This document shows, in pieces, positions 47,945 through 64,000 of a stretch of DNA of 64,000 bases. This DNA comes from Candidatus Omnitrophota bacterium. Lineage in GTDB: Bacteria; Hinthialibacterota; Hinthialibacteria; OLB16. Position 1 is the stretch's first letter. The number at the start of each line of letters is the position of its first letter. The stretch lies in contig JACKFH010000006.1 of assembly GCA_020632575.1 (NCBI GenBank), forward strand, positions 10,117 through 74,116. The letters are read 5' to 3'. The position numbers and the translations under genes are program-made. Under the pieces are notes generated by a model, which was not told the origin of the DNA, did no database searches, and saw only the letters and a program-made list of their open reading frames with translations.

Positions 47945-49447
47945 TTATTCCAATTTCTTTTCACCCTCTCGAGCGGATTCAATGGCGTCAATAAGCAGAT
48001 TGGCGTTCTTGAGGAAGGTGGCGGTTCTTATTCCGCGAAACTTCTCCGGAGGGTTGTTCATATAGTCCACCGTATTTGGAAAAGTCAAATCCTCCACCCA
48101 AGCTCCCCTCTCGTCCAAACTGGAGATGACACCCTCAACACTCTCTAACGCCACCATTGGGGAGCTCGGAGCGCTTTCAATCTCCCGCTTCGCTCGGGCA
48201 ATCTCCGATTGTCCCATCTTGGTCAAGCCTTGATAACGCTCCCACATCGCCTTCGTGTTCAGATTGAAAGTGTACCCATATCCTCTCAGAAGGTTTTCCG
48301 GGTTGTGGTCGTTCCAGTATCGACCGGTCTCTTTGGTTGTCCCCTCACGATGACCGTAAATTGGCTGATTCGTTCCAATCTCGATGAAAGTGGCGTGGGT
48401 GTGGCCCTCCGTCGAGTGACTTTTGGGAATGACCGATGCCTCCAACCATTCGATGGCGGGTGGTATCGCATCCAAATAACGTCGGTCTCCCGTCTCCAGA
48501 AAAAAATCTCCCAACGCGCTAAGGTTGTGCACTGTATCCAAAGTGGAGAGGGCGACAGGCTCATACGAACGCGCGGCGGCGGGCTTGAGGTCGAGACCGT
48601 ATTGCTGAGCCCACCCCGCCTGGGGGCTCGGCAGTTGCGAAAGGAGGACAAAATCCATCCCACGTACTGCCGAACGACGGTAGCGATCATCTCCCAACGC
48701 CCGGTAAGCCTCCAAAAGAAATCGGATGTTTCCGAGAATGACATCGTCATTGAAGGTGTAGTACTCCGTGTAGTCGATATCCCCATCTGTCAGCTCTTCG
48801 GGATCGAGTGGATATCTTTGAGGCCAAGCCCCATTTGGATATTGCGATTGGAGAAAGAAATCGAGCGCCTTCAACAAAACTTCCTTGTAGACCGGCTCGC
48901 TGGTCTCTTGGTATAGGTGGAGCAGGAAGCGAGTCGCGTCGACTGTCACACTGTCATCGAAGGTGCAGTTCCCATAGTTGTGATAAAACTCCTCCCACCC
49001 CCAACATCGGAAACCGACCTCCTCATACCACTCCTCGGTTCGATCCGGTTCGAAGTCGATAAAGTAGTGCCAACCGCCGGAAGGGTGCTGCCCGTAGATG
49101 AGCGCTGAGGCGACTTTCTCCGCGGCCCCGAGGTAAAATTTGTCCCCGGTAACCCGATAGGCGCGGAGCATCGCCTCGCCGACACCGACCGTCGCGGGAT
49201 CCTGCACCCAAATCATCGTCTCTCTGGCCGGCAGTTCTCCCCAGCGCCGGGAAAGGTCTTCGCTGTAAATCATGACGAACCCGCCTCGGTAGGCCACTTT
49301 GTCCATCATGAAATGGCAACTTCGATCAAGGGCCTCCCGCAGCTTTGTATCGGGATCCATCGCAAATGACGCAGTCCAACATAGAAAAAGTTGGGCGCCA
49401 ATAACGATCCACTGTCTTCTGAATAGGCCGGTTCGTTTGTCCGTCAC
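47945..49447 (-). CDS. Pectate lyase, PL10 (PelA/Pel-15E) family, secreted
   Basis: GTG start with a GGGGGA RBS. QYPNGAWPQRYPL and YTFNDDVILGNIRFLLEAY match conserved PL10 blocks. Confidence 0.7.
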   Translation of the reverse strand: MTDKRTGLFRRQWIVIGAQLFLCWTASFAMDPDTKLREALDRSCHFMMDKVAYRGGFVMIYSEDLSRRWGELPARETMIWVQDPATVGVGEAMLRAYRVTGDKFYLGAAEKVASALIYGQHPSGGWHYFIDFEPDRTEEWYEEVGFRCWGWEEFYHNYGNCTFDDSVTVDATRFLLHLYQETSEPVYKEVLLKALDFFLQSQYPNGAWPQRYPLDPEELTDGDIDYTEYYTFNDDVILGNIRFLLEAYRALGDDRYRRSAVRGMDFVLLSQLPSPQAGWAQQYGLDLKPAAARSYEPVALSTLDTVHNLSALGDFFLETGDRRYLDAIPPAIEWLEASVIPKSHSTEGHTHATFIEIGTNQPIYGHREGTTKETGRYWNDHNPENLLRGYGYTFNLNTKAMWERYQGLTKMGQSEIARAKREIESAPSSPMVALESVEGVISSLDERGAWVEDLTFPNTVDYMNNPPEKFRGIRTATFLKNANLLIDAIESAREGEKKLE

Positions 49448-49597: not shown

Positions 49598-52500
49598 TCA
49601 GTCGTCGACAATCAATCGGGCGGTTACAAGAATGAGAAGATTCTGAGTGGTCTCCACATCCGATTTGTCGGTGAAGAGGAAGGAAAGTCCGGGGATGAAG
49701 CCAAGACCGGGCAAACGACCCTCGACATGATTCAACTGACGGCGCAGCAATCCACCGATCACTAGGGTGTCGCCATCGTCGACTCGAACCCTTACGGTCG
49801 CCCGACGGGTCTGAGTGCTGGGACGCCCCTGTAAGGGATTGCCGTTCGCGTCGAAGAGCACCAGTCGATCGCCGGGAATTTCCAGTTCCGGTTCGAGATT
49901 CATTTCAATGTGTCCATCGCCAGTCACACTCGGTGTGACAATGAGGGTGAAACCGAATTCCTCGAAGTCCGTGTTGACCTGCTGCGTGGTGGTTTGGTTG
50001 TTACCGCCGGGCTGCGAGACGTTTTGGGTGTCGTCGATGAAGGGGATTTCCTCGCCCAAGAAGACCTCGCCCTCCGCGCCGTTGACCACAGTGATCTTGG
50101 GGGCCGTTAGGATTCGGATATCCGTGAAGCGAGACAACATGGAAAGAGTCGACTCGATCCGAGTCCGGCCCAAAGTAGCCAAAGTGAGATTCGATCCGCC
50201 CGGGTTGCCCGGCTGACTGTCGAGAACCAAACTTCCGTTGGAGGTCGTCAACGAGGGGCCTTCCCCGCCGTCGTCGATTTCCAACAAGTTGTCGATCGTC
50301 ATCTGGACACCCAACTCGTCATTCGAATTGTATTGAAGTTCGACAAGACGGGTTTCCACTTCGACCTGGTCGACCGGAAGGTCGAGCCGTTCGATCAGTT
50401 CGACCGCTCGCTCGATGTCCGAGAGACGCGAGCCGGTGATGATCATCGTCTTGGTGGAGATATCGCCTTTCACAATAACGGGGATGATTCCGAGGAATGA
50501 GAAGGCCCCTAAACCTCCGCCGAAGCCGCCGCCAAAACCGCCGGCTCCGCCGATTCCACCGCCAATTCCGCCGATGCCTCCGCCAATCCCTCCGATACCA
50601 CCACCTATGCCGCCAATTCCCCCGCCGATTCCACCGCCAATTCCGCCGATGCCGCCACCGAAACCGCCTTGGCCAATGCCTGGCTGCTGAGTTCCGCCGA
50701 CACCCGCGCCACCAACGGGTTGACTAATCAAAACCGCTAGCACGAGCCCTTGCAGTGAGTTCGCGATATCGACAACTGAACGCTGCCGGACCTCGACGAC
50801 ACGCGATAAACTCGTCGTTTCAGTGATTCCCGTTAGGTACTCTTGAATCTTGGCCAGATTCTCGGGGGTGTCGACCACGTCGATCGTCCCCTCATCCAGG
50901 TCGGGATACATGACTCGCCCCTCGGCCGCCGCCTCTTCGATACTCTGGCTGCCGTAGAGAAGGCTCTGGAAAACTTGTTTCGTGAAATTCACCTGCTTCC
51001 GGCGTCGGAGCACGGCGTCCGGGGTGTCGGTGCGCAAATCCTCGGCGGGCACAACGGTGAACTTTCTGGCTTTAAGTTCGCGGTCGACAACCTTGTCGAT
51101 GAATTTGGGATCCTGCATGAGCCGCTTGACCAACTCTAATTTCTCGGGGGTCTGACGGATCATGAGAAGGCCAGATTCGTTGTCGTACACCAGGTAAGGA
51201 TCCTGGTCCGAGAAGTCGGTGTCGATTTCCGCTTTCCCGAATAGACGCAAGTTGATGATTTTCGCCAAATCCTCGCCACCGGTCTGCGGGAGACGGAAGG
51301 TTTCGACCACCATCGGCGGTTCGACCAGGTCGATTTCATCGCGTCGATAGAGATCCAGGAACTGGCGCACGAGATCGACATTGTAACGGCTGTCGCGGAC
51401 CACGAGCTCGAGAAGGAATTTGTTGAGAATGAAGGTGCGACCGGGAACTTGGGCGTCGATATTCTTCTTGATTTCGTCGGTTTCGACTTTGCCCAGCACG
51501 ACTTCGCGAAGCGCCTCGGAATAATCGTCGGTCTCTTTCCCGCCAAGCGCTCCCATCGCAAGCCGCTTGAGCGCCTGGTACTGCTCCTCGGTTAGCGGGA
51601 ACCTTTGGGTGATGATATCCCGAGTCACCTCAATGATGTTGGTCCCGGGTTGACGCTGCCAGGTGTAACCGTTGAGTTTCAAAACCTTGTCGAGAAACTC
51701 GCGGTAGGTGAGTTCCGTTGTCCGAAGGGCGTTGATTTGTCCATCGACCCCCTCGCCGGTAATGATCTGCAAGTCCGCGATAGCGCCCATGGTCGACAAG
51801 ATTTCGTTCACGTTCACCGGTGTGGATTGCTCCAGGACGAAGGTCTTTTCGTCAAGCACCCTCGAGACCCTGTCGTCAACTTCCTCACGTTGGGTGTCCA
51901 TGGCCAAACGACGGTCGGCTTCGGCCTTCTCCTCGGCGTACTTGTCAAGGAAGGCGCGCGCAACTTGGTTGTTTGGCTCGAGCTGGATGGCTCGCTCCCA
52001 CAATTCATATCCGGAAATGATCCGTCCCTTTTGGACCTCGCTGATTCCCTTTTCGATAAGAAGATTGACTTCGTCGTTCGGGGATGAAGTGATGTTAACT
52101 TGGTTTTGTGGGGCGGGCGCCATCGGAGCGCTATTCTGGGGAATTGGGCTTGGAGCGGTCGCCGAGTCGGCTTGGGCGACTGTGTAGTACGATTCCTCGG
52201 AGCCGATCTCTCTTAACTTTTCGGTCGTGCCGGGCGAGTCCTGGAACCACGGGTCCACAGCCTTGGCGGGGGCTGATTCGACTCTTCTCGCCTCTCTTTC
52301 GATTGGCGGAGTCTCCATCCCATTTACGGGTCGAATAACTTCGGGTCGATCGGGAGATTGGTAATCGAGATCGAGACTCGCCACCTTCATCGAATCTTCC
52401 ATTTTTTGGCATTCCAGATAATACCGCTGCGCCGCCGGATGGTCCGGAACCTTTCCAAGGACCTTCCGAAACATCTGACGCGCCTGAGAGTAGTTGCCGG

Positions 52501-53440
52501 CGTTGAACATTTGCACGCCTCTGTCGAAATCGGGTGCGATTTCGACGAGCAGGTCGCCGCGATCACCTTGTTTCGCATTCTGCGCATCAACCACTTGGGT
52601 GGCGCGTTTGGATTCCAATGCCAACAGACGAGTCTGCGCGTCTTTGGAGTTCGGGAACAGACGAAGCACCTCGCGATACAGGTTCGCGGCTTTTTCCGTA
52701 TCCCCCGCTTGCTCCGCGACAAAGCCCTCGGAAAACAATTCAGCCGCCTTCTCCAAGGCGACATCCTCTTGCATGGAAGCGTCGTCGCTCGTCTCCTCTG
52801 GAAGCAGCAACTCCCCGAGGTTGTTCGAGGAGGGCTCATTCATCGCGACCAGCTGCGGGCGTGAACTCGAACGCGTTCCGCTGGCGGCCGACCGAGCTTC
52901 TTCCAGTCCTCGTCGCGCCTGGACATTCGTGGGGTCAATGCTCAAGACCTGCTGGAAAGAAGTCTCGCTCGAGGCGTAATCGCCCCTCTTGAGCGCGGCG
53001 ATTCCTTGAGCGAGAAGATTGTTCGTTCCCTCATCGATTTGGGTGAGACGGGCATCTCTTTCGCGAGCGCTCATCGAGGCGCGCCCTTCGGCTTCCTCGA
53101 TCATTCTCGCAGCCATTTTGGCGTTTTCGAGTTGTTTGCGGAGGTTGGAGGCAATGCTGGAATGCACGGGAGATTGCTCCCAAACGGAGATGGCCGAATC
53201 CGCCTTGGGAAACTCGCCGCGCTTGATCAGGTTCTCGATCTCTTGGATCGGCAGTCGTCCCCCAGGGGTCGCCTGGGTGTGAACCGCGCCGACAGACGTC
53301 GCGCTTTCAGCAAGCACGGCGGGAACCGGGAGCGCTCCTATCAGAATTGTTGAAAGAGTGATAATTGTCCCTACAACCCCGAATACCCCGTTTCGATTCC
53401 TCGCGGTTGCGGCACAGACCCTGCCCATGCGGCTGTGCAT
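49598..53440 (-). CDS. pilQ: Secretin (PilQ/GspD family) with N-terminal TPR-repeat domain and internal Gly-rich (GGIGGIG)n insert
   Basis: C-terminal secretin core (TAPKITVVNGAEGEVFLGEEIPF.., VRVRVDDGDTLVIGGLL.., LPGLGFIPGLSFLF). About 5 TPR-like repeats in the N-terminal 500 aa. I prefer the start at ATG 53440 (GGAGGA 8 nt upstream, MHSRMGRV.. TM) over the listed 53482. Confidence 0.85.
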   Translation of the reverse strand: MHSRMGRVCAATARNRNGVFGVVGTIITLSTILIGALPVPAVLAESATSVGAVHTQATPGGRLPIQEIENLIKRGEFPKADSAISVWEQSPVHSSIASNLRKQLENAKMAARMIEEAEGRASMSARERDARLTQIDEGTNNLLAQGIAALKRGDYASSETSFQQVLSIDPTNVQARRGLEEARSAASGTRSSSRPQLVAMNEPSSNNLGELLLPEETSDDASMQEDVALEKAAELFSEGFVAEQAGDTEKAANLYREVLRLFPNSKDAQTRLLALESKRATQVVDAQNAKQGDRGDLLVEIAPDFDRGVQMFNAGNYSQARQMFRKVLGKVPDHPAAQRYYLECQKMEDSMKVASLDLDYQSPDRPEVIRPVNGMETPPIEREARRVESAPAKAVDPWFQDSPGTTEKLREIGSEESYYTVAQADSATAPSPIPQNSAPMAPAPQNQVNITSSPNDEVNLLIEKGISEVQKGRIISGYELWERAIQLEPNNQVARAFLDKYAEEKAEADRRLAMDTQREEVDDRVSRVLDEKTFVLEQSTPVNVNEILSTMGAIADLQIITGEGVDGQINALRTTELTYREFLDKVLKLNGYTWQRQPGTNIIEVTRDIITQRFPLTEEQYQALKRLAMGALGGKETDDYSEALREVVLGKVETDEIKKNIDAQVPGRTFILNKFLLELVVRDSRYNVDLVRQFLDLYRRDEIDLVEPPMVVETFRLPQTGGEDLAKIINLRLFGKAEIDTDFSDQDPYLVYDNESGLLMIRQTPEKLELVKRLMQDPKFIDKVVDRELKARKFTVVPAEDLRTDTPDAVLRRRKQVNFTKQVFQSLLYGSQSIEEAAAEGRVMYPDLDEGTIDVVDTPENLAKIQEYLTGITETTSLSRVVEVRQRSVVDIANSLQGLVLAVLISQPVGGAGVGGTQQPGIGQGGFGGGIGGIGGGIGGGIGGIGGGIGGIGGGIGGIGGGIGGAGGFGGGFGGGLGAFSFLGIIPVIVKGDISTKTMIITGSRLSDIERAVELIERLDLPVDQVEVETRLVELQYNSNDELGVQMTIDNLLEIDDGGEGPSLTTSNGSLVLDSQPGNPGGSNLTLATLGRTRIESTLSMLSRFTDIRILTAPKITVVNGAEGEVFLGEEIPFIDDTQNVSQPGGNNQTTTQQVNTDFEEFGFTLIVTPSVTGDGHIEMNLEPELEIPGDRLVLFDANGNPLQGRPSTQTRRATVRVRVDDGDTLVIGGLLRRQLNHVEGRLPGLGFIPGLSFLFTDKSDVETTQNLLILVTARLIVDD
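50509..50700. repeat. Coding minisatellite (imperfect ~18-21 bp tandem units ccgccaattccgccgatgcc) that encodes the secretin Gly/Ile repeat
   Basis: Directly visible tandem periodicity in the DNA. The antisense frame reads PPIPPPIPP. Confidence 0.7.
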
Positions 53441-53900
53441 CAAGTAAATCCTCCGATTATGGCGTAGATACGACGTCGACATTCGGCCTCATTAGAGGGA
53501 TGCGTGAGCAATGAAACCACATCCCCTTCTCTACCAAGTCTAGTTATCGTTGAGACTTAGCGCCAACTTAAGCCTTTTTATCGGCGTCTCGCTCTGCTGT
53601 TTTGAGGGTCAACATTCTCGACCCAAAATTTTCTTGGAGAATCCAAGAATTCCCATTTGTTTAACCCGCGCCCTTGAGCGCTTGAGCAATTTAAAACCTA
53701 ACCTCTCCCCGACTTTCCGCCAACGTCGAGAACACGATTCTAGCGACCCAAGATAGCGGTTGACAACCTAGTTCGGTTCCCGAGACGCCAATGCTACACG
53801 AAACGGGCTTGAAACGGAATCGGTCGGGGCTCCACCCCACCCGACCCTGAAATGAATTCGTTTCAGGCGCCGTCTCCTCGCTTTCTCAGTCGCCTCCGTT

Positions 53901-55406
53901 TCAGCGTTGAAGACTACTGATCCGAGCGTTCAATCGTTTAATCAGGTTCCTTAGCTCGTTATACTCGCTGCGCAGTTCCCCATACCCGGGAACGCGTCGT
54001 ATATCTTTCGTTCGCCCTTGAATTCCTTGAACTTCCGCCATTCTGTCGTTAATCGTCGAGAGAGTGTCCTGAGGAACTCGGCCACCCGAAATGTCTTCCT
54101 CCGCCTTATCGATCAGGGAGCGCACTTCTCGTAGTTTTTCGCGCATGTCCCGCACGGCGTCGCTCGCCTCGAGCTTGGAAAGGTTCGATTCCCATCTCCG
54201 TCGCTCGCGGGCGATGTCACCATCCGAGATCTTCAACACTTCCAGAATATCGTACAACCTCAGGATCTCCCGAATCCCCTCCACATCTCTGCCAGTCGCC
54301 TCGTCAGTGGCGAGTCGGGCGATCTCCTGTCGGACTCGTTTGACAATTTGGTCCTTGTTTTGGTCAAGATTGGCCTTCAGCTCATTCAACCGGTCAATCT
54401 GGCTCTGCGTCAGATAATCGCTGTTCCGCTCTTCCAATATCCTGTCGAATTGAGTCAAGGATTGAATGGCTTGCGACACCTGCTCCGGCTCCGAATCGGC
54501 GGTAATCGCGCTAACACGTCTGACCACGTCCTCATAACGCTGAAGAACAAGAGTCTTGTTGAGATTCTCTCGGGATTGCAGGAGTCGTTCATGCGTGTCC
54601 TCTAGCGAGGTGATCTGACCCTGCGTCACATCCGTCCCTTCGAGACAGGATTGATTTTGTCCCGCCTCTTGGATGCTTCTTTCGATCAAGGTGATTGTCG
54701 AGTCCAAAGACTCGATCGACTGAAGCAAATCGCCTCCGGTTTGACCCGCCGACTGCAGAGCCGCTTCCCCCTGTTTGGCCGCCTCGGAAATGGACCGGCT
54801 GAGTTCCGCGCATTTGTGGTTCTGCAGCAGGTTGACCGGCGGAGTCGGCCACTCCAACAACTTCCCTTGGGGATCGTCCTTCACATACTCTTCAAGTTTC
54901 TTGATCGCGAGCGGAATATTCCCATTTTTGACCGCGTCCTGATACTCCTCCCGAAGTGTGGTCAACCTTTTGATTAACTGGCTAAAATTGGCTGCTGGAG
55001 TGAAAACCGGGTGATAGGAAACCGGGCCGATTTCAGACTTGGGAACAGGAGTGAAATCGATATTTCCCGTGACGATGTCCCCGCCTTGCTCAGCCCCTCC
55101 AGGGGCGCCTCCCGGAACCCCTCCCGGCATACCGCCAGGTGCGCCACCCGGCATCCCCCCAGGCATCCCCCCCGGCATGCCTGGTCCTCCTGGAAGACCG
55201 CCACCGGGCATCCCCCCCCCGGGAACGTTCACTGGAGTCCGAACCTGATCCCCGTATTGGCCGATCCAGATGGATTCGGGCGATTGCCCGTCAATGGCCT
55301 GTGAGGTTTGCATGGCGATTAATATCGCCACACCGATCAGCACCATGATCACATAGTCGCGCACTTGCGAGAAACGTTGCACCAACTTCGCCAATAGTTG
55401 TTTCAT
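53901..55406 (-). CDS. Bitopic membrane protein with (GMPGG)n low-complexity linker and long coiled-coil periplasmic domain. Candidate PilO/PilP-like pilus platform component
   Basis: N-terminal TM VIMVLIGVAILIAM. PGGGMPGGGLPGGPGMPGGMPGG... repeats. Heptad-rich C-terminus. Sits between the PilMN fusion gene and the secretin gene. Confidence 0.6.
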   Translation of the reverse strand: MKQLLAKLVQRFSQVRDYVIMVLIGVAILIAMQTSQAIDGQSPESIWIGQYGDQVRTPVNVPGGGMPGGGLPGGPGMPGGMPGGMPGGAPGGMPGGVPGGAPGGAEQGGDIVTGNIDFTPVPKSEIGPVSYHPVFTPAANFSQLIKRLTTLREEYQDAVKNGNIPLAIKKLEEYVKDDPQGKLLEWPTPPVNLLQNHKCAELSRSISEAAKQGEAALQSAGQTGGDLLQSIESLDSTITLIERSIQEAGQNQSCLEGTDVTQGQITSLEDTHERLLQSRENLNKTLVLQRYEDVVRRVSAITADSEPEQVSQAIQSLTQFDRILEERNSDYLTQSQIDRLNELKANLDQNKDQIVKRVRQEIARLATDEATGRDVEGIREILRLYDILEVLKISDGDIARERRRWESNLSKLEASDAVRDMREKLREVRSLIDKAEEDISGGRVPQDTLSTINDRMAEVQGIQGRTKDIRRVPGYGELRSEYNELRNLIKRLNARISSLQR

Positions 55407-55449: not shown

Positions 55450-57456
55450 TCATCCGCCCTGAACCGGGGGGATCAATGTCAAGTCGCTGACCTCCATCTC
55501 GGCCTTGAGGAGGGCTTTCGCCTCCTGAGGCCCGATTTTGTAGGAACCGACCTCTTCTCTTCGGCTGGTTTGAAACCTGATTTCGTAGTTCTCTTCCTCA
55601 TACCCCAAAGCGGCGTCCCCCACCGCGCCGAGGATGTTCATCACCAGCACGGCTCTTTCGGCCTCGTTGACCGGATCCGGCGCCTCGACACCCAGGAGAA
55701 ACTTCTGCTTGCTGCCTTTTGGAGTGCTGTGGTCTTGAAAATAGACCTGGTAAACCTCCACTCCTCGGTTCGAAAGTTTCTCCCGGAGAACCGATTGCTC
55801 GGGGGAGGGGTCTTTTTCAATGCCCGCGGAAACCTTGAACTCCACCGTATTATCCGATCTCAAATCCTGTGAGGTGATGTTCGGAACCAGCAAGTGTTCG
55901 GCGGAATCCATTTGCTCTTTGAACGGCCCCAGGGTTTTGATATCCGTCCCCATTACCGTCATCGTCAGGTTCGTCGTGTCCGCGTCGACCCGAGTCAACC
56001 AAGTCTCACCCAAGGGGACATTGCTGGCCACATCCGCGAGAGTTTCAGAAATGACTCCCCGAGTCCTGTCGATTTCATTGAACAGCGCGAATCGGTCTTC
56101 CAGCAAGCGTGTGTTGTCCATGTATGTGCCGATTTGAGTCGCGATATCGTTCTTGGGACCGGCGCCGTCGGTCGGCCGCGCCAAGTGACGATCCAACTCC
56201 TGACGCGCTTGTTCGTAAAGCTCGATATTGGCTCGTACCGCTGAGATCGAAAGGAAGACAAAACATCCCAGCAGGATGCCCTCGACCAATAACCAAGTAC
56301 GCCGCTTTTCGAATTCTTTCTTGCGAACGATATAGGACGGCAGGAAATTCATCCGGAGGGGAACGTCGCCGATGTTCTTCTGGCACTGCCCCACCAGAAC
56401 GCCTGTGGTCTGGGCGAGAGGCTCAGAATCCAACTCGGAAACATTGACAAGCGTGTCCTGAAAAACGTCCGCCACTTCGCAAGGCGTCCCCAACCGTTGC
56501 TCAAGGTATTCCGCGATTCCGGGACACTGGGAGGTTCCCCCGGTCAGCAGCACCTTCTCCACTGGCTCGCCATCCGGTTGGGAAACATAGAAGTCGAGGG
56601 TCCTGCGAATCTCGTTAGAGATCGCGTCAAAGGATTTGGAAAGAAACACCTTCACACGCGCGGATTGGTCATCCTCCCCGTACGCTAGCGGATCGGTCTG
56701 ACGGTCGATCGAGGGGTCGATTTCACCCACAGTCACTTTCAATTCCTCGGCTTCGTCCCACTCGACACCGAGCTGGTCCGCGAGAGCCTTGGTGAGATGA
56801 TCGCCAGCCTGAGGAGCACTGCGAATAAACTCGACATGGCTTTCCCGACAGACCACGATGTCGGTGGTCGAGGCGCCGATATCGACAAAAGCGACCACTT
56901 CCTCGTCCGCCGCTTTCAATTGAGGGTAAAAACAATTGAAAAGACTCAGAGTCGTCACATCGATCGTGTCCGGCACCAATCCGGCCGATTTGAGCATCGC
57001 GCAGTACTGATCGACGATATTCTTTCGGATGGCGACCAGGGTGACCGCCAATTCGGGACCCGCCGTGTCGAAAACATGAGAATCGAGGATGATATCCTCG
57101 AGGGGGAATGGAATCTGTTGACGGGCCTCGTACTGAATCAGTCGATCCAGACGATCCCCGGACACTTTCGGTATCCGCAATTGGCGAACAAAACTCGCTC
57201 GACCGGGAATCGCGAAGGAAACTTGCTTGGCGGAAAGGCCGTGTCTTTTAAGGACTTCCTGAAGCAACACGCCACTGCGCTCGATCACCTCCTCGGGAGA
57301 TGCCGAGGGGTCGAGACCGGTCTTGACGGTGTAGACGGATTGAATCTTCGCCGATTTCCCCTTGACTCCAAGGGTTCCAACACCAACTTTTAGCGTGTGG
57401 CGACCCGGATCGATGACGACTAGCGAGGTGGATCCGAAACCGATCGACAAAGCCAT
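55450..57456 (-). CDS. pilM: Type IV pilus / T2SS inner-membrane platform protein, PilM-PilN(-PilO-like) fusion
   Basis: Actin-like PilM motifs (VVIDPG, VAFVDIGASTTDIVV, VLLTGGTSQCPGIAEYL). A TM segment WLLVEGILLGCFVFLSISAV plus coiled coil (PilN). An additional ~200-aa C-terminal domain. Confidence 0.75.
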   Translation of the reverse strand: MALSIGFGSTSLVVIDPGRHTLKVGVGTLGVKGKSAKIQSVYTVKTGLDPSASPEEVIERSGVLLQEVLKRHGLSAKQVSFAIPGRASFVRQLRIPKVSGDRLDRLIQYEARQQIPFPLEDIILDSHVFDTAGPELAVTLVAIRKNIVDQYCAMLKSAGLVPDTIDVTTLSLFNCFYPQLKAADEEVVAFVDIGASTTDIVVCRESHVEFIRSAPQAGDHLTKALADQLGVEWDEAEELKVTVGEIDPSIDRQTDPLAYGEDDQSARVKVFLSKSFDAISNEIRRTLDFYVSQPDGEPVEKVLLTGGTSQCPGIAEYLEQRLGTPCEVADVFQDTLVNVSELDSEPLAQTTGVLVGQCQKNIGDVPLRMNFLPSYIVRKKEFEKRRTWLLVEGILLGCFVFLSISAVRANIELYEQARQELDRHLARPTDGAGPKNDIATQIGTYMDNTRLLEDRFALFNEIDRTRGVISETLADVASNVPLGETWLTRVDADTTNLTMTVMGTDIKTLGPFKEQMDSAEHLLVPNITSQDLRSDNTVEFKVSAGIEKDPSPEQSVLREKLSNRGVEVYQVYFQDHSTPKGSKQKFLLGVEAPDPVNEAERAVLVMNILGAVGDAALGYEEENYEIRFQTSRREEVGSYKIGPQEAKALLKAEMEVSDLTLIPPVQGG

Positions 57457-57577: not shown

Positions 57578-59302
57578 TCAGCGGACGGGGTCAATATCCG
57601 CCGAAAGATAATCTCTCCTAGGTACGATTGAGACGGTGGAGCCAATGGTTCCGTCCCGGGGAAACTCGGTGTCTCCCAGCACATCGGACCGCCGGTAACT
57701 CAGACGTGTCCCACTTTTCGAGGCCGGGGAGGGGTCCATGTGAAAATACACCGGCGTCTCCGCGGTTGTTTTTAGACCCTTGAATCGAATGGTCGCGATT
57801 GTCCCCTCTTTTTCGAACGCCTGACGAAACACCCCGTTTTCGTAAAGAATTCGCCCTTCATCCTGACGGACCAAATTTTGTCGCATCCAGTCAAAAGGAA
57901 AACGAGTATGGTAAGGACCATCCAGAATGTTCGTTCCGATCGAAACCCAATTCCCCTCGTCTTGGTCCACGACTTCCAGGAATCGAGGGTCGAAACGGAT
58001 GTCGAGGCGGATCTGATCCCAGGGAACCTGTTCCGGGTTCACCACCCGGACATTTAGGTCGAATTCCTTCCCCTCCTCGACCGCGGCGGCGGGGGGGTCC
58101 AACACAATCAGTGTCTTGAGTTCACCCTCGGGAACAGTGGTCTTCCTTTCGATCATCTCCTCCTTATCCAAAGCCTGCACGGTCACCCCGCCGCTAATAA
58201 CACCATCCTTGGAGTCGGTGGAGTCCCCCAACACATTCCTAAAGACCATTGGGCCGCCTTCCTCCGATTCCAAGAGACCCACATAGGTCATCTCCTCGGG
58301 CCAAGTCCATTCCTGATCCGACTGGATCGGAGGAGCCAACACCTCTGGCCATTCCGCGAAAAGAAATTGAATCGGCGAACGATCGGTTGGCGAAAGAACT
58401 CGGAATTTCATGGAAAGCACAAAACCTTGACCGGTTTCGGTCTCCCCGGAGGCGGATCGGGCACGGTAATAAATCATGCCGTTCTCCGTATCCGCACGAT
58501 TCAGGTAGAAGAGATCCTCACCTCGATCCCGAACGAAGTCGAAGGACTCCAGTGTCTTTTCGGACAGGTCGTACGAGGAATGAACTCCCGCGGTCCCACC
58601 GGGGGCGTCAATGAATTCGAGCACATCCGGATCGTACGAGAGCGCGAACGAAAGGACGTTGAACTCCTTTTCGAGCGGGTTGTCGAGCCAAACATGAACC
58701 GGAACAATCTCATCCACCGCGACCTTCTGCTGAAGCGGAGCCAACCGTAAAACGAGATCCCCCTGTAATGGGACGCCAACAGCCGCCTCTCCTTCCTTGC
58801 CTTGTCCGGGCGGAGTCTGACCGGGTGGCAGCGGCTTCGCTCCGGGAGGAAGCGCTCGACGGACCCCTGGAACGCCCGGTTGCGGAACCGCGGCGGGAGG
58901 TTGTTGGGGGCGTGGCGCGGGAGCGGGAGGCTCCTGCGGCTCCTGTTCTTGCTGGGAGGGCGCCTGTTGTTGGTTTTGATAATCCGGTGGGGGGGGAGGT
59001 TGATTGTAATCGTCCTCGTACCGTGTGGACCGACGGCTGTCGCGAGACCGACGGCTCCGGAAAACGGATTCGTCGCGACCAGCGCCAAACCCCTGACACC
59101 ACGCTGTCTCCTCGTGTCCGCCTCCGAAGAAGGGGATGTCTTCGCCGGGAGCAAATATGAAAAGCGCCGCCAAGGCGCACTTCGCCGCAGCACCGATGCG
59201 CACGCACGTGCGTGCGTCCCTCGGCGACACGAATAGCGCGCGAATGGATTTGAGATTTGAGAAATACAAGATCACTGACCCCACCTTTCTTTGCAGGGGC
59301 AT
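57578..59302 (-). CDS. Tandem cohesin-domain protein with Arg-rich and Pro/Gln-rich N-terminal region
   Basis: Two cohesin-like modules (LSFALSYDPDVLEFIDAPGG...IQFLFAEWPEV, and DLNVRVVNPEQVPWDQIRLDIRFDPRFLEVVDQ). The start is uncertain (ATG 59302 or GTG ~59203). A signal-like ALAALFIFAPG segment. Confidence 0.7.
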   Translation of the reverse strand: MPLQRKVGSVILYFSNLKSIRALFVSPRDARTCVRIGAAAKCALAALFIFAPGEDIPFFGGGHEETAWCQGFGAGRDESVFRSRRSRDSRRSTRYEDDYNQPPPPPDYQNQQQAPSQQEQEPQEPPAPAPRPQQPPAAVPQPGVPGVRRALPPGAKPLPPGQTPPGQGKEGEAAVGVPLQGDLVLRLAPLQQKVAVDEIVPVHVWLDNPLEKEFNVLSFALSYDPDVLEFIDAPGGTAGVHSSYDLSEKTLESFDFVRDRGEDLFYLNRADTENGMIYYRARSASGETETGQGFVLSMKFRVLSPTDRSPIQFLFAEWPEVLAPPIQSDQEWTWPEEMTYVGLLESEEGGPMVFRNVLGDSTDSKDGVISGGVTVQALDKEEMIERKTTVPEGELKTLIVLDPPAAAVEEGKEFDLNVRVVNPEQVPWDQIRLDIRFDPRFLEVVDQDEGNWVSIGTNILDGPYHTRFPFDWMRQNLVRQDEGRILYENGVFRQAFEKEGTIATIRFKGLKTTAETPVYFHMDPSPASKSGTRLSYRRSDVLGDTEFPRDGTIGSTVSIVPRRDYLSADIDPVR

Positions 59303-59414: not shown

Positions 59415-60395
59415 TTATTCGCGCTTTAGACGATATTTGTCAATCTTACGATCCAGAGTCGGTCGAGATATCCCCAGAATTCTCGAAGCCTGAGTCTTAT
59501 TCCAGTTGAGGTGGTCGAGAACCCTCTTAAGATGACGCGCCTCGAGCTCATCGAGCGAAATCATTTCGACCGCCCCGTCGCCTCCTCTACGCCCCCCCTC
59601 GCTCGAGCCGAAACCGGAATCGGTGAACGTCGTGTTGGGCAAATGTTCCACCCACACGGTCGAGCCATCGGCCATCAAGACCGCGTGATGAATGACATGC
59701 TCCAACTCGCGGACATTCCCCGGCCAAGCGTGGCGCTTAAGAACCTGGAGCGCCGCCGGTGAGATGGTTCGCACTTTCTTGTCGTACTGACGGTTGAAGA
59801 CCCCAATGAAGAGTTCGATCAATGGCTCCAAATCCTCCAACCTTTCGCGAAGCGGAGGAATTCGAATGCTCACCTCGTTCAAACGGTAAAAGAGGTCCTG
59901 TCGGAAATCGCCCTTGGCCACGAGATCCGATAGATTTCGATTGGTCGCGCAAACCACTCGGATATCCACCGGGATGTCCTGGTTGCTACCGATGCGTTGG
60001 ATAGTCTTTTCCTGAAGTGCTCGGAGAATCTTGGCTTGGGACTGAAGCGCCATGTCCCCGATTTCGTCCAAGAAAATTGTCCCGCCGGAAGCGGATTCGA
60101 ATTTCCCCTCACGAGTCGACACCGCCCCCGTGAAGGCCCCCTTCTCATGGCCGAATAACTCGGACTCAAGTAGGGCGCTCGGCACCGCCGCGCAATTCAC
60201 CGCCACAAAGGGCCCCTCGGCTCTTCGACTCGACAGATGAATTCCCCTCGCGAAGAGTTCTTTACCCGTCCCGCTCTCCCCCGTGATCAATACTACCGCT
60301 CGGCTCGGAGCAACCTTTTCCGCCAGAGAAATCAACTCATGCATCGAGTCGCTTCGATGTACTATCCGGTCGAGCCCAAATCTTTCGCCGTCCAT
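59415..60395 (-). CDS. Sigma-54-dependent transcriptional activator (bEBP AAA+ domain plus Fis-type HTH, no receiver/sensor domain)
   Basis: Walker [15 protein letters not shown] motif. C-terminal [16 protein letters not shown]. Start candidates are 60395 (GGAG upstream), 60440 and 60473. Confidence 0.8.
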
Positions 60396-60482
60396 TTTGT
60401 CCCGCTCCGCACTCTTGCCGTTTTCCAAGTGAATCGGCATACTGGTGATGGAGATTCGAGGGGAGTGTATCATTTCTTTTCA

Positions 60483-63153: not shown

Positions 63154-64000
63154 TCATTGCCACGTTGGCGATGTCTCCGAGGTCGACGCCGTCTCCCAAG
63201 GTCTCGGTTTCTCGTTCCACTCATTAACCTCGAAGAAGGCGATCAAACCGACATCCCCAAGCGCCTCGTCGTAGTGGAATTCCCCGTTCCCGCTGACATC
63301 GACCTTCCCGCCGACAGCCGCGCCATAAATATCGCCGCCACCAGTGAGAGTGATATGAGCGTCGGGTGCATAGATCACTCCTGCATACCCCGCTCCACCA
63401 TTGATGGTGATGTCCGTATCGAGCGTTCCGCTTGAGTAAATCATGAGTCGTTCGGGTGGACCGGACCCGCCATTGTTGACGACGGTGCCGCCATTCCAGT
63501 CCAAATTTCCATCCGTAAAGATCACCACATGGCCATCCACGATCAGATTGGAATTCCCTCCCAAATTCGAGGATGAAAGGTAGTAGACTTTGGGATTGTC
63601 CTGAGTCCCCCCCGGCAATGTGAGTGTGGCGCCGGAAACCACATTCAATTCTCCAGTGGACGGATTGAAGGCGTCCACCAATTGGCCGTTGCTTTTGACA
63701 GCTTGTGGGATATCCGCGTTATCGTTTTCGAGCTTCGCCGCATCGACCAGGGTGTTGACCGGAGGAAGATCGATCTTGGTCATCCCGCCTTCAACCTCGC
63801 CTGTGATTTCCGCGTTGTTTCCAACGAGCACCACACTCCCGCCGGCCGAGGCGTCGCCGTCGATGATCGGCGTCCCGTTCAGCAAGATGTCGTGGTTCGA
63901 CCCGGCGTCGCCATTGCTGTAGATATTTCCACCCACCCCATAAAAACCGTCGCGGGAATCGAAACTATCCACGACGGTCGTTCCGCCCAGTTCCAGGTCC
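63154..64000 (-). CDS. C-terminal part of a large secreted beta-helix/adhesin-like repeat protein (the N-terminus lies beyond the right window edge)
   Basis: The frame is open to the window end. Gly/Asn/Asp-rich beta-solenoid-like repeats (GGxGxxG..., NGGAGYAGVIYAPDAHITLTGGGDIYGA). Confidence 0.6.
   Translation of the reverse strand, partial: DLELGGTTVVDSFDSRDGFYGVGGNIYSNGDAGSNHDILLNGTPIIDGDASAGGSVVLVGNNAEITGEVEGGMTKIDLPPVNTLVDAAKLENDNADIPQAVKSNGQLVDAFNPSTGELNVVSGATLTLPGGTQDNPKVYYLSSSNLGGNSNLIVDGHVVIFTDGNLDWNGGTVVNNGGSGPPERLMIYSSGTLDTDITINGGAGYAGVIYAPDAHITLTGGGDIYGAAVGGKVDVSGNGEFHYDEALGDVGLIAFFEVNEWNEKPRPWETASTSETSPTWQ

Follow-up and report, generated by a model that had tools for sequence, protein, structure and literature searches.

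The analyzed DNA (hereafter, the window) is a stretch of 64,000 nucleotides (nt) from the Candidatus Omnitrophota bacterium assembly GCA_020632575.1 (contig JACKFH010000006.1, positions 10,117 to 74,116). On its minus strand it carries a gene for an outer-membrane secretin in which tetratricopeptide repeat (TPR) modules are fused in front of the secretin and a long, uncharged, Gly-rich tract is inserted into the last ring-building domain. The best overall explanation, to which we give a probability of about one half, is that the protein is a TPR-secretin with a greatly expanded N3 loop, that the loops of the assembled ring would form a soft constriction in the secretin vestibule, and that the TPR modules would act as adaptors at the inner-membrane-proximal end. 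The gene is as follows:

49598..53440, minus strand: coding sequence of the TPR-secretin (1280 amino acids (aa) plus stop; from the list of open reading frames (ORFs))

The longest reading of this ORF is 49598..53482 (minus strand), which gives 1294 aa counted from the first ATG. The ATG at 53440, chosen in an earlier note on this DNA, was preferred as the better start because a GGAGG Shine-Dalgarno sequence is located 8 nt upstream of it, the N-terminal peptide MHSRMGRVCAATARNRNGVFGVVGTIIT beginning at this ATG is invariant in orthologues that are only 67-77% identical overall, and the annotated product in GCA_020430105.1 is identical to the 1280-aa protein of the window. Residue numbers refer to the 1280-aa protein unless marked as 1294-aa or model numbering.

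The Pfam scan attributed the C-terminal part of the protein to the Secretin family (121.2 bits against a cutoff of 27.5, E 4.5e-35, aa 1116-1291 in 1294-aa numbering) and to Secretin_N (28.8 bits against 28.2), while the matches to N0 and STN were weak. Modeling of aa 540-1280 using AlphaFold2 (alignment of 39 sequences, mean predicted local distance difference test (pLDDT) score 74) led to a model that begins with an N0 domain and continues through a helical connector and three alpha/beta ring-building domains to the secretin barrel. A Foldseek search of the PDB with this model revealed PulD (6hcg) as the best match (E 5.8e-24, 779 columns) over N0-N3 and the core, followed by the GspD structures of enterotoxigenic Escherichia coli, Aeromonas and Vibrio and then by the injectisome secretin InvG and PilQ structures. 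The identity of the protein as a secretin and its domain anatomy can thus be stated with very high confidence. The domains are arranged as follows:

51596..51823, minus strand: N0 domain, aa 540-615 (residues 1-76 of the AlphaFold model; weak Pfam N0/STN matches; Foldseek match to PulD/GspD)
50825..51436, minus strand: two N1/N2-like alpha/beta ring-building domains, aa 669-872 (AlphaFold domain order; Foldseek match to PulD 6hcg and GspD)
50384..50809, minus strand: last ring-building domain (N3-like), aa 878-1019, which holds the Gly-rich tract (Pfam Secretin_N; AlphaFold)
49610..50368, minus strand: secretin beta-barrel core, aa 1025-1277 (Pfam Secretin; AlphaFold strands; Foldseek)

The protein ends 3 residues past the Secretin domain, so it has no S-domain, and no AMIN domain was matched in the Pfam scan. 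The family-level models left it outside the known subfamilies: it scored 156.3 bits with the GspD equivalog TIGR02517 (cutoff 351), 139.2 bits with the PilQ subfamily TIGR02515 (cutoff 284) and 86.1 bits with the Amuc_1098 family NF042912 (cutoff 750), the latter over C-terminal stretches only. Thus, the comparison with PilQ and GspD proposed in the earlier note confirmed the secretin fold, with PulD/GspD as the best structures, but neither the GspD nor the PilQ subfamily cutoff was reached. The protein is best described as belonging to a distinct, deeply diverged TPR-secretin family, separate from the Amuc_1098 family.

The earlier note had described a Gly/Ile segment of ~70 aa (50509-50700) lying just upstream of the secretin core. 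The segment is real, and its boundaries were refined:

50495..50722, minus strand: Gly/Ile/Phe low-complexity tract, aa 907-982, 76 aa (composition; pLDDT ~32; tracts in orthologues)

The tract contains 46 Gly, 11 Ile and 5 Phe residues, and none of its 76 residues is charged, compared with 25% in the whole protein. Its position had to be corrected: it does not serve as a linker in front of the core but interrupts the last Secretin_N domain, where it separates helix 1 from strand 2. The Pfam Secretin_N match (model positions 1-69) extends across 147 residues (aa 893-1039 in 1294-aa numbering) because the tract is inserted between alpha1 and beta2. In the AlphaFold model the elements of N3 follow one another as beta1 (339-344), alpha1 (350-366), a disordered segment (367-445), beta2 (449-454), beta3 (459-464) and alpha2 (467-480), all in model numbering; the pLDDT is ~32 for residues 367-445 and 83-91 for the flanking alpha1 and beta2.

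A loop at the same site is described in the secretin InvG, where residues 217-267 form a variable N3 loop between helix 1 and strand 2 that is disordered in the closed state, is proposed to account for the periplasmic constriction and, in the needle-bound form, is partly ordered and threads outward between N3 and N1 (PMC6155069). The N3 loop of PulD (288-303) is unresolved in the structure, and PulD chain residue ~307, just past that loop, is where strand 2 of the window protein falls in the alignment (the chain numbering was not reconciled with that of the paper). In XcpQ of P. aeruginosa, an 18-residue Gly-rich stretch, MKNNGGQGGEQTGGGRPS, was found at the position aligned with the tract. 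It is highly probable that the tract is an expanded form of the variable N3 loop of secretins.

Note that the strand opposite the tract contains an ORF of 91 aa (50415..50690, plus strand), rich in Pro (PPIPPMPPP...). It was rejected as a gene, being a reverse-complement reading of the GGN Gly codons. A polyglycine-II bundle, known from the snow-flea antifreeze protein and the Obg fold, was weakly rejected as a structure for the tract, the repeat periods being 7 and 4 residues rather than 3 and the pLDDT ~32.

The earlier note also took the tract to be encoded by an imperfect ~20-bp minisatellite. At the DNA level this repeat proved to be weak: Tandem Repeats Finder reported only overlapping sub-arrays with periods of 12, 21, 30 and 33 and 75-84% matches, the self-identity of the tract DNA at offset 21 is 55% with a longest exact run of 9 nt, and the ten GGIGG peptides of the tract are encoded by 9 different DNA strings. 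The sole long exact repeat in the tract is the 32-mer GGCATCGGCGGAATTGGCGGTGGAATCGGCGG, present in two copies in the window:

50622..50653, minus strand: 32-nt exact direct repeat, copy 1 (exact search, 2 matches against 0 expected; bounds the 75-nt insertion or deletion relative to locus L001)
50547..50578, minus strand: 32-nt exact direct repeat, copy 2, 75 nt from copy 1 (exact pattern search)

The locus L001 (GCA_020430205.1), whose DNA is 99.3-99.6% identical to the window, contains a single copy of this 32-mer and is without exactly 75 nt (25 codons), which gives a tract of 51 aa against 76. Its secretin contig is ~5 kb long, begins at window position 53443 and belongs to a distinct strain (27-35 single-nucleotide polymorphisms (SNPs) in 5 kb). 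Between the window and the locus L022 (GCA_020430105.1) there are 17 SNPs over 7.8 kb and no gaps, and L022 carries the long, 76-aa allele. Within the secretin coding sequence, the window differs from L022 by 10 synonymous and 0 nonsynonymous codons and from L001 by 20 synonymous codons and 1 nonsynonymous codon, and across the three strains the protein differs only by the tract insertion or deletion and one Ser-to-Ala change. The secretin gene is under purifying selection.

Such a difference might in principle be produced by a short-read assembly in which the contig collapsed at the 32-nt repeat. The end-points of the 75-nt difference coincide exactly with the repeats, where a small-k de Bruijn graph could short-circuit, and the short allele was found in one 5-kb contig only. 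This origin is nevertheless unlikely, as the short-allele contig carries the SNPs of a distinct strain, the sister metagenome-assembled genome (MAG) with a neighbouring accession (GCA_020430105.1 as against GCA_020430205.1) has the intact long allele, and tracts of 70, 83 and 85 aa occur in more distant orthologues, where the length change is real on longer time scales. The comparison of tract lengths suggested by the earlier note thus gave 76 aa in the window and GCA_020430105.1, 51 aa in L001 and 70, 83 and 85 aa in more distant orthologues, and we hold with good confidence that the tract has a genuine strain-level length polymorphism. The expectation of the earlier note that copy number could vary between strains was borne out for the length but not for the mechanism, which is a 75-bp event and not 20-bp slippage. 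Since the duplication covers no more than 32-38 nt of the 75-nt unit, the simplest history is that the L001 lineage underwent a deletion between the two repeats. The picture is that of an old peptide-level repeat kept by selection on composition, with occasional block deletion or expansion on top of it.

To place the tract in the family, homologues were collected in three ways. A word-indexed protein search yielded three close homologues only (P0001-P0003), an exhaustive search of 50%-identity cluster representatives yielded 30 representatives at E ≤ 1e-30, and the metagenome relatives L019-L021 were found by a scan with the C-terminal half of the protein. Among the named genomes matched are several Ca. 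Omnitrophota MAGs and, with 43% identity, Ca. Hinthialibacteria OLB16; OLB16/Hinthialibacterota were formerly placed in Omnitrophota, in the Planctomycetes-Verrucomicrobia-Chlamydiae (PVC) superphylum (PMC9324843). The relatives that bear on the loop are as follows:

P0001: Ca. Omnitrophica MAG GCA_020430205.1; the contig begins at window position 53443, which truncates the gene call at the N-terminus
P0002: Ca. Omnitrophota MAG OFTM149; 71% identical; N3 loop of 70 aa composed of G/I/L/F
P0003: two Logan run assemblies; 67% identical; N3 loop of 83 aa composed of G/I/L
L020: metagenome contig Ga0310121_10002678, 4376-4630; N3 loop of 85 aa, mostly (GGGL)n; 43% identity over the pre-tract region
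P0012, P0013, L005, L006, L019: N3 loops of 35-45 aa, Q/N/T-rich, most of them ending in FG-like motifs (QFGFFG, QFGLFG)
more distant members: polar/charged N3 loops of 20-25 aa, or inserts of 100-140 aa with a conserved core and an A/P/G-rich tail

Across the relatives the length of the N3 loop ranges from ~20 to 142 aa. In orthologues with 43-77% identity the N3 site is occupied by a G+(I/L/F) tract of 51-85 aa; this tract is kept in composition and not in sequence or length, and no member of this Gly-tract clade has lost it, the shortest tract being 51 aa. The loop of L020 contains a perfect 24-nt tandem repeat, GGCGGCGGCCTCGGTGGTGGTCTA, in ~4.3 copies (104 nt exact), which indicates a recent expansion. 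The inserts of 100-140 aa (P0117, P0134, P0069, P0143, P0047 and others) are located at the same helix 1/strand 2 site and have an A/P/G/Q-rich tail. Their core (..RV.R.NEND.ND..DDS.EL.VRT......T..E..SEF.DDYEI.A.D..PS.TPGEGRA.I...Y.P) resembles an inserted domain more than a loop.

This diversity bears on the possibility that the tract is a nearly neutral by-product, that is, a slippage-prone expansion tolerated in a permissive surface loop of N3. The N3 site is a general insertion hot-spot (20-25 aa, 35-45 aa Q/N-rich, 51-85 aa Gly-rich and 100-140 aa), the tract length differs between near-identical strains, the perfect 24-nt repeat of L020 is typical of recent slippage, and AlphaFold gives the tract no structure. 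On the other hand, the extreme composition is held down to ~43% identity, with 0 of 76 residues charged and always Gly together with aliphatic or aromatic residues; the diversified codons of the repeated peptides imply that the repeats are old, yet they remain in frame and compositionally pure; the tract is never absent from the Gly-tract clade, where it does not fall below 51 aa; and the remainder of the gene is under strong purifying selection. Taken together, a nearly neutral origin is considered rather unlikely, though it deserves to be kept in mind.

The role for the tract that we prefer is that of an enlarged N3 constriction. The vestibule of a secretin is ~7-8 nm wide, as in GspD structures. 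If the ring is a 12-15-mer, a stoichiometry assumed from solved secretins, its loops (~900-1100 residues, ~70-90 kDa in total) would come together at the N3 ring. At the N3 level alone they would occupy much of the lumen; if distributed along the vestibule, they would have a density comparable to that of other cohesive disordered meshworks. The loops may thus form a soft, self-cohesive constriction or gasket that would seal the vestibule in the idle state and fit closely around the passing fibre or substrate in the active state, with the repeat number setting the bulk of the gasket. This mechanism is put forward tentatively, as one that may well turn out to be wrong.

Several points weigh against this gasket and against the wider explanation of which it is a part. 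In needle-bound InvG the loop, threading outward between N1 and N3, stabilises the ring rather than plugging it (PMC6155069). The N3 loops of sister clades are chemically different (Q/N-rich, charged with 20-25 aa, or 100-140 aa with a conserved core), and therefore no single sequence is required. A functionless expansion in a permissive loop would equally give length variation and tandem repeats, and the short allele is known from a single short-read MAG contig that could be an assembly collapse. In addition, no pilin, ATPase or platform genes (GspE/F domains) were found among the ORFs scanned in the 64-kb window.

The behaviour of InvG suggests another role for the loop, namely that of a flexible strap that would thread between subunits or rings, or reach the peptidoglycan or a partner, and so stabilise the ring. 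The Ile and Phe residues could pack against neighbouring domains. The InvG segments, however, form a defined strand contact and a helix, and specific packing is made unlikely by a content of 60% Gly without conserved sequence; the tract also ranges from 51 to 85 aa in length, and its pLDDT is ~32 throughout. A strap is accordingly regarded as improbable. By analogy, the Gly/Ile/Leu/Phe loops and the Q/N-rich sister loops with their phenylalanine-glycine (FG) endings might be regarded as a cohesive meshwork within the secretin vestibule, like that of FG-nucleoporins, acting as a phase-type permeability barrier, although we consider this idea very unlikely to be correct. Such a meshwork would supplement or replace the rigid gate, its bulk being tuned by repeat number between strains; this extension of the analogy is likewise very doubtful.

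The second part of the protein is the region in front of N0, which the earlier note had read as an N-terminal domain of ~500 aa with ~5 TPR-like repeats. In the full protein, Pfam TPR_2 was found with 58.7 bits against a cutoff of 27 (E 2.7e-16). When isolated segments were scanned, three TPR motifs were detected (~aa 142-172, 232-264 and 305-345; E 3e-5, 6e-6 and 2e-4). The AlphaFold2 model of aa 46-545 (mean pLDDT 78) consists of a helix pair (aa 65-88), a 62-residue helix (aa 91-152) and four modules, each built of helix A, helix B and a long helix, with disordered linkers at aa 192-218 (27 aa) and 366-451 (86 aa). The modules are as follows:

52877..53029, minus strand: TPR module 1, aa 138-188, joined to the 62-residue helix aa 91-152 (TPR_2 E 3.2e-5 when scanned alone; pLDDT >90)
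52571..52783, minus strand: TPR module 2, aa 220-290 (TPR_2 E 6.1e-6 when scanned alone; AlphaFold helices 175-199, 203-216 and 221-245 in model numbering)
52364..52558, minus strand: TPR module 3, aa 295-359 (Pfam TPR_19 E 1.7e-4 when scanned alone; AlphaFold helices)
51851..52081, minus strand: TPR-like module 4, aa 454-530 (AlphaFold helices with pLDDT 92-97; family consensus)

Module 4 shows the highest conservation of all modules across the family, its long last helix runs into N0, and its family consensus looks TPR-like (A..L...G...Y..G....A...W..AL..DP....A...L). Neither the module 4 segment nor the first segment gave a Pfam match when scanned alone; module 4 and the N-terminal helix pair showed up in the AlphaFold model and the family consensus only. 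The presence of N-terminal TPR motifs in a secretin was thus borne out by Pfam (Secretin together with TPR_2), by the three motifs found singly and by the AlphaFold model, and a profile check of the N-terminal helices showed them to be TPR-like in three individual segments. The number of repeats held in part: three are found by profile, four or five only by structure prediction, and they are dispersed. According to the model, the TPR units are solitary modules on disordered linkers and not one contiguous superhelix. Within the poorly conserved 86-aa linker, a DPWF motif (aa 396-399; 52244-52255, minus strand) is invariant in three orthologues; from the sequence, it is a candidate short linear binding motif.

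The earlier note had regarded the fusion as unusual, a TPR feature normally supplied by separate proteins, and had called the domain pilotin-like. The fusion is, in fact, known from Akkermansia Amuc_1098, and TPR_2 together with Secretin was found in 33 of the 35 long members scanned (50%-identity cluster representatives, the window protein included). The pilotin likeness was reduced to an analogy: the PilF/PilW pilotin model TIGR02521 gave 17.3 bits against a cutoff of 154, the fold matches of the TPR region are generic TPR proteins (designed consensus TPRs with E 2e-5, OGT, P58IPK), the leader has no lipobox, and the TPR region lies N-terminal to N0. Weaker fold matches were BamD (E 1e-3) and PilF (E 3e-3, TM-score ~0.14-0.26).

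The leader was read by eye as a signal peptide:

53306..53440, minus strand: predicted Sec signal peptide, aa 1-45 (small-x-Ala|Glu site in three orthologues)

Its first 28 aa are invariant in the three orthologues, and cleavage is predicted after VLA, GFA or ALA, in each case before Glu. In the window sequence there is no lipobox Cys after the hydrophobic region; the sole Cys of the leader (aa 9) precedes that region, and the predicted cleavage site is VLA|ES.

The fused region might nevertheless be a built-in pilotin, replacing PilF/PilW/Tgl in targeting and multimerisation of the secretin. The same idea was proposed for Amuc_1098 (PMC4960237). In the window protein, the missing S-domain leaves no docking site for classical small pilotins, the TPR fusion is near-universal in the family (33 of 35), BamD and PilF are among the fold matches, and the disordered linkers of 27 and 86 aa could give the modules a long reach. 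The best fold matches are nevertheless generic TPR proteins and the PilW score (17 bits against 154) is far below its cutoff; the modules are solitary and do not form a PilF-like six-repeat superhelix, there is no lipobox, and hhalign detected no homology to the TPR part of Amuc_1098. N0 is the end of a secretin nearest the inner membrane and furthest from the outer membrane, and PulD is 20 nm long. Pilotins do their work at the outer membrane or on the S-domain at the C-terminus of the secretin, while the TPR region is attached N-terminal to N0, at the inner-membrane-proximal end. All these characteristics make a built-in pilotin of any kind a doubtful proposition, and a classical lipoprotein pilotin is unlikely.

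An adaptor or scaffold at the inner-membrane-proximal end is weakly favoured. The TPR modules would then be periplasmic protein-binding adaptors that could dock PilM/N and coiled-coil partners, or could aid the self-assembly of the secretin. In the same orthologues, the TPR region is 53-59% identical and the C-terminal part 86-88%, so the TPR region diverges faster; therefore, an adaptor surface fits better than a core assembly element.

The partners considered here are encoded next to the secretin. The gene order is sigma-54 activator, cohesin-like/proline-rich protein, PilM-PilN fusion, a coiled-coil membrane protein of ~460-500 aa and the TPR-secretin. It is the same in the loci L002, L005 and L006, and the five-gene cluster is conserved in Omnitrophota/Hinthialibacterota-type MAGs. 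In the window, the genes accompanying the secretin are as follows:

53901..55406, minus strand: 501-aa membrane-anchored coiled-coil protein with a GGMPGG tract (ORF; position kept in L002, L004, L005 and L006)
55450..57456, minus strand: PilM-PilN fusion, 668 aa, Amuc_1101-like (TIGR01175 pilM 166.9 bits against 133; PilM_2 E 8.5e-38)
57578..59302, minus strand: 574-aa cohesin-domain protein (Pfam Cohesin E 1.9e-10; conserved position)
59415..60473, minus strand: sigma-54-dependent activator (Pfam Sigma54_activat E 3.9e-72; position kept in L002, L005 and L006)

The PilM-PilN fusion is located two genes upstream of the secretin, with the unclassified coiled-coil protein between them. It matched Amuc_1101_fam partially, at 217 bits and below the cutoff of 650, and carries a C-terminal extension of ~200 aa. 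The coiled-coil protein had no family match in Pfam or NCBIfam-type profile scans. Right after its membrane anchor it has an uncharged Gly-rich (GGMPGG)n tract (aa 62-105; 55092-55223, minus strand), and its orthologues contain PGMPGMPG-type or shorter Gly-rich tracts, with none in L006; therefore, two proteins of one machine carry variable Gly-rich low-complexity segments. The profile scans showed no recognisable PilO or PilP beside the secretin, no gsp genes were found near it, the neighbours being PilM/N-like, and a six-frame search of the window showed no prepilin motif. In the window, L001 and L022, the gene that follows the secretin immediately downstream is of the pectate-lyase family (47945-49447, minus strand). 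As this slot is occupied by a glycosyltransferase gene in L003 and L004, the pectate-lyase gene falls outside the conserved cluster. A gene at the window edge (63154-63972, minus strand) encodes a protein of 272 aa in which DUF7305 and pAdhesive_15 (a putative ice-binding-like adhesive domain) were matched.

The region upstream of the secretin gene is conserved as well:

53441..53656, minus strand: conserved 5' leader/upstream region of the secretin gene (DNA identity to orthologous loci)

The leader and the start of the coding sequence (53363-53656, minus strand) have ~88% DNA identity over 309 nt with orthologous loci whose proteins are 67-77% identical, and among these loci the first 78 coding nt of the secretin are 100% identical, synonymous sites included. 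The region 53363-53656 contains the palindromes CTTGGATTCTCCAAG and GGGTCGAGAATGTTGACCC, and a conserved sigma-54 activator gene lies three genes upstream. No Rfam family was found for 53250-53950 at E ≤ 1, the RNA fold of 53355-53560 was no better than that of shuffled sequence (z = -0.8), and a scan for sigma-70 promoters and terminators revealed only one weak promoter-like sequence and one terminator-like hairpin, which corresponds to the chance level. No -24/-12 sigma-54 spacing was seen by eye in the conserved block, and no copy of the leader region was found by blastn in the L005 and L006 loci. The conserved leader probably has a regulatory role.

Secretins are gated pores of very large size, and it is understood only in part how they remain sealed while letting pili or folded proteins through. 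To our knowledge, the N3 constriction with its unresolved loop is an open detail in every cryo-electron microscopy structure of a secretin. The clade described here is a natural extreme of this loop (51-85 uncharged Gly-rich residues), and its natural length variants are usable for asking whether the N3 loop sits in the lumen and what it adds to sealing or gating. If the tract is a tolerated expansion, it is a well-documented case of repeat-driven loop evolution. Within a broad, uncultured clade that is related to the Amuc_1098 system of Akkermansia, the TPR-secretin fusion is the normal arrangement, and it bears on how secretins are assembled without classical pilotins in these bacteria. The TPR-secretin architecture and the variable N3 loop as such are already known; new are the size and chemistry of the loop in a clade with natural length variants, and a broad TPR-secretin family distinct from Amuc_1098.

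Among known systems, the closest in architecture is the Amuc_1098 family (Akkermansia muciniphila and other Verrucomicrobia; NF042912). Amuc_1098 PilQ of Akkermansia is a 907-residue secretin with three N-terminal TPRs "resembling the pilotin proteins" and is the most abundant outer-membrane protein of Akkermansia (Ottman et al. 2016, PMC4960237). Five further matches of our search (P0005, P0006, P0009-P0011) are TPR and secretin proteins of ~880-945 aa, and the three tested (P0005, P0006 and P0010) are true members of Amuc_1098_fam (1059-1203 bits against a cutoff of 750). The Amuc_1098 family and the window protein share the combination of TPR and secretin as well as Amuc_1101-like PilM and coiled-coil neighbours, and both come from the PVC-associated part of the tree. 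The family proteins differ in their length of ~880-945 aa and three TPRs, as against 1280 aa and 4-5 dispersed modules in the window protein. In the hhalign comparison with the family, only N3 and the core aligned, no alignment of the TPR and N0-N2 regions was detectable, and a short poly-Gly run of the family was placed opposite the start of the tract. The long Gly-rich run of the Amuc_1098 relatives is located in the barrel region (aa ~670-720) and not in N3. A common origin of the TPR fusion in the two families is not supported, as hhalign aligns N3 and the core only.

GspD, PulD and XcpQ match the window protein structurally over N0, the three ring domains and the core, and their variable or unresolved N3 loop is at the same position. 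They differ in that the window protein has a TPR region of ~500 aa before N0 and no S-domain, and in that the GspD-type N3 loop has ~16-18 aa compared with the 76 uncharged aa of the window. The InvG loop 217-267 is likewise a helix 1/strand 2 insertion in N3 that varies between orthologues and is disordered in the closed state; it consists, however, of ~50 aa of ordinary mixed sequence that becomes partly ordered (strand contact, helix) with the needle, whereas the loop of the window protein is a 60%-Gly repeat without charged residues and with variable copy number. PilF, PilW, Tgl and TadD have in common with the window protein a TPR-containing periplasmic element associated with a secretin, but they are separate outer-membrane lipoproteins with contiguous TPR arrays, while the modules of the window protein are fused and solitary.

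In composition, the tract resembles the GLFG regions of FG-nucleoporins and abductin-type elastomers, which are uncharged disordered Gly-rich repeats with Phe or aliphatic residues and conserved composition; in both cases a ring-shaped channel would be surrounded by many copies of the segment. This is a functional analogy only and not homology, a nuclear pore being compared with a bacterial periplasmic vestibule, and no direct precedent for a Gly-rich or nucleoporin-like secretin loop was found in the literature. A 2015 survey described prion-like (Q/N-rich) domains between Secretin_N and Secretin in 67 bacterial proteins (PMC4606120); therefore, low-complexity inserts in this area of secretins had been noticed before.

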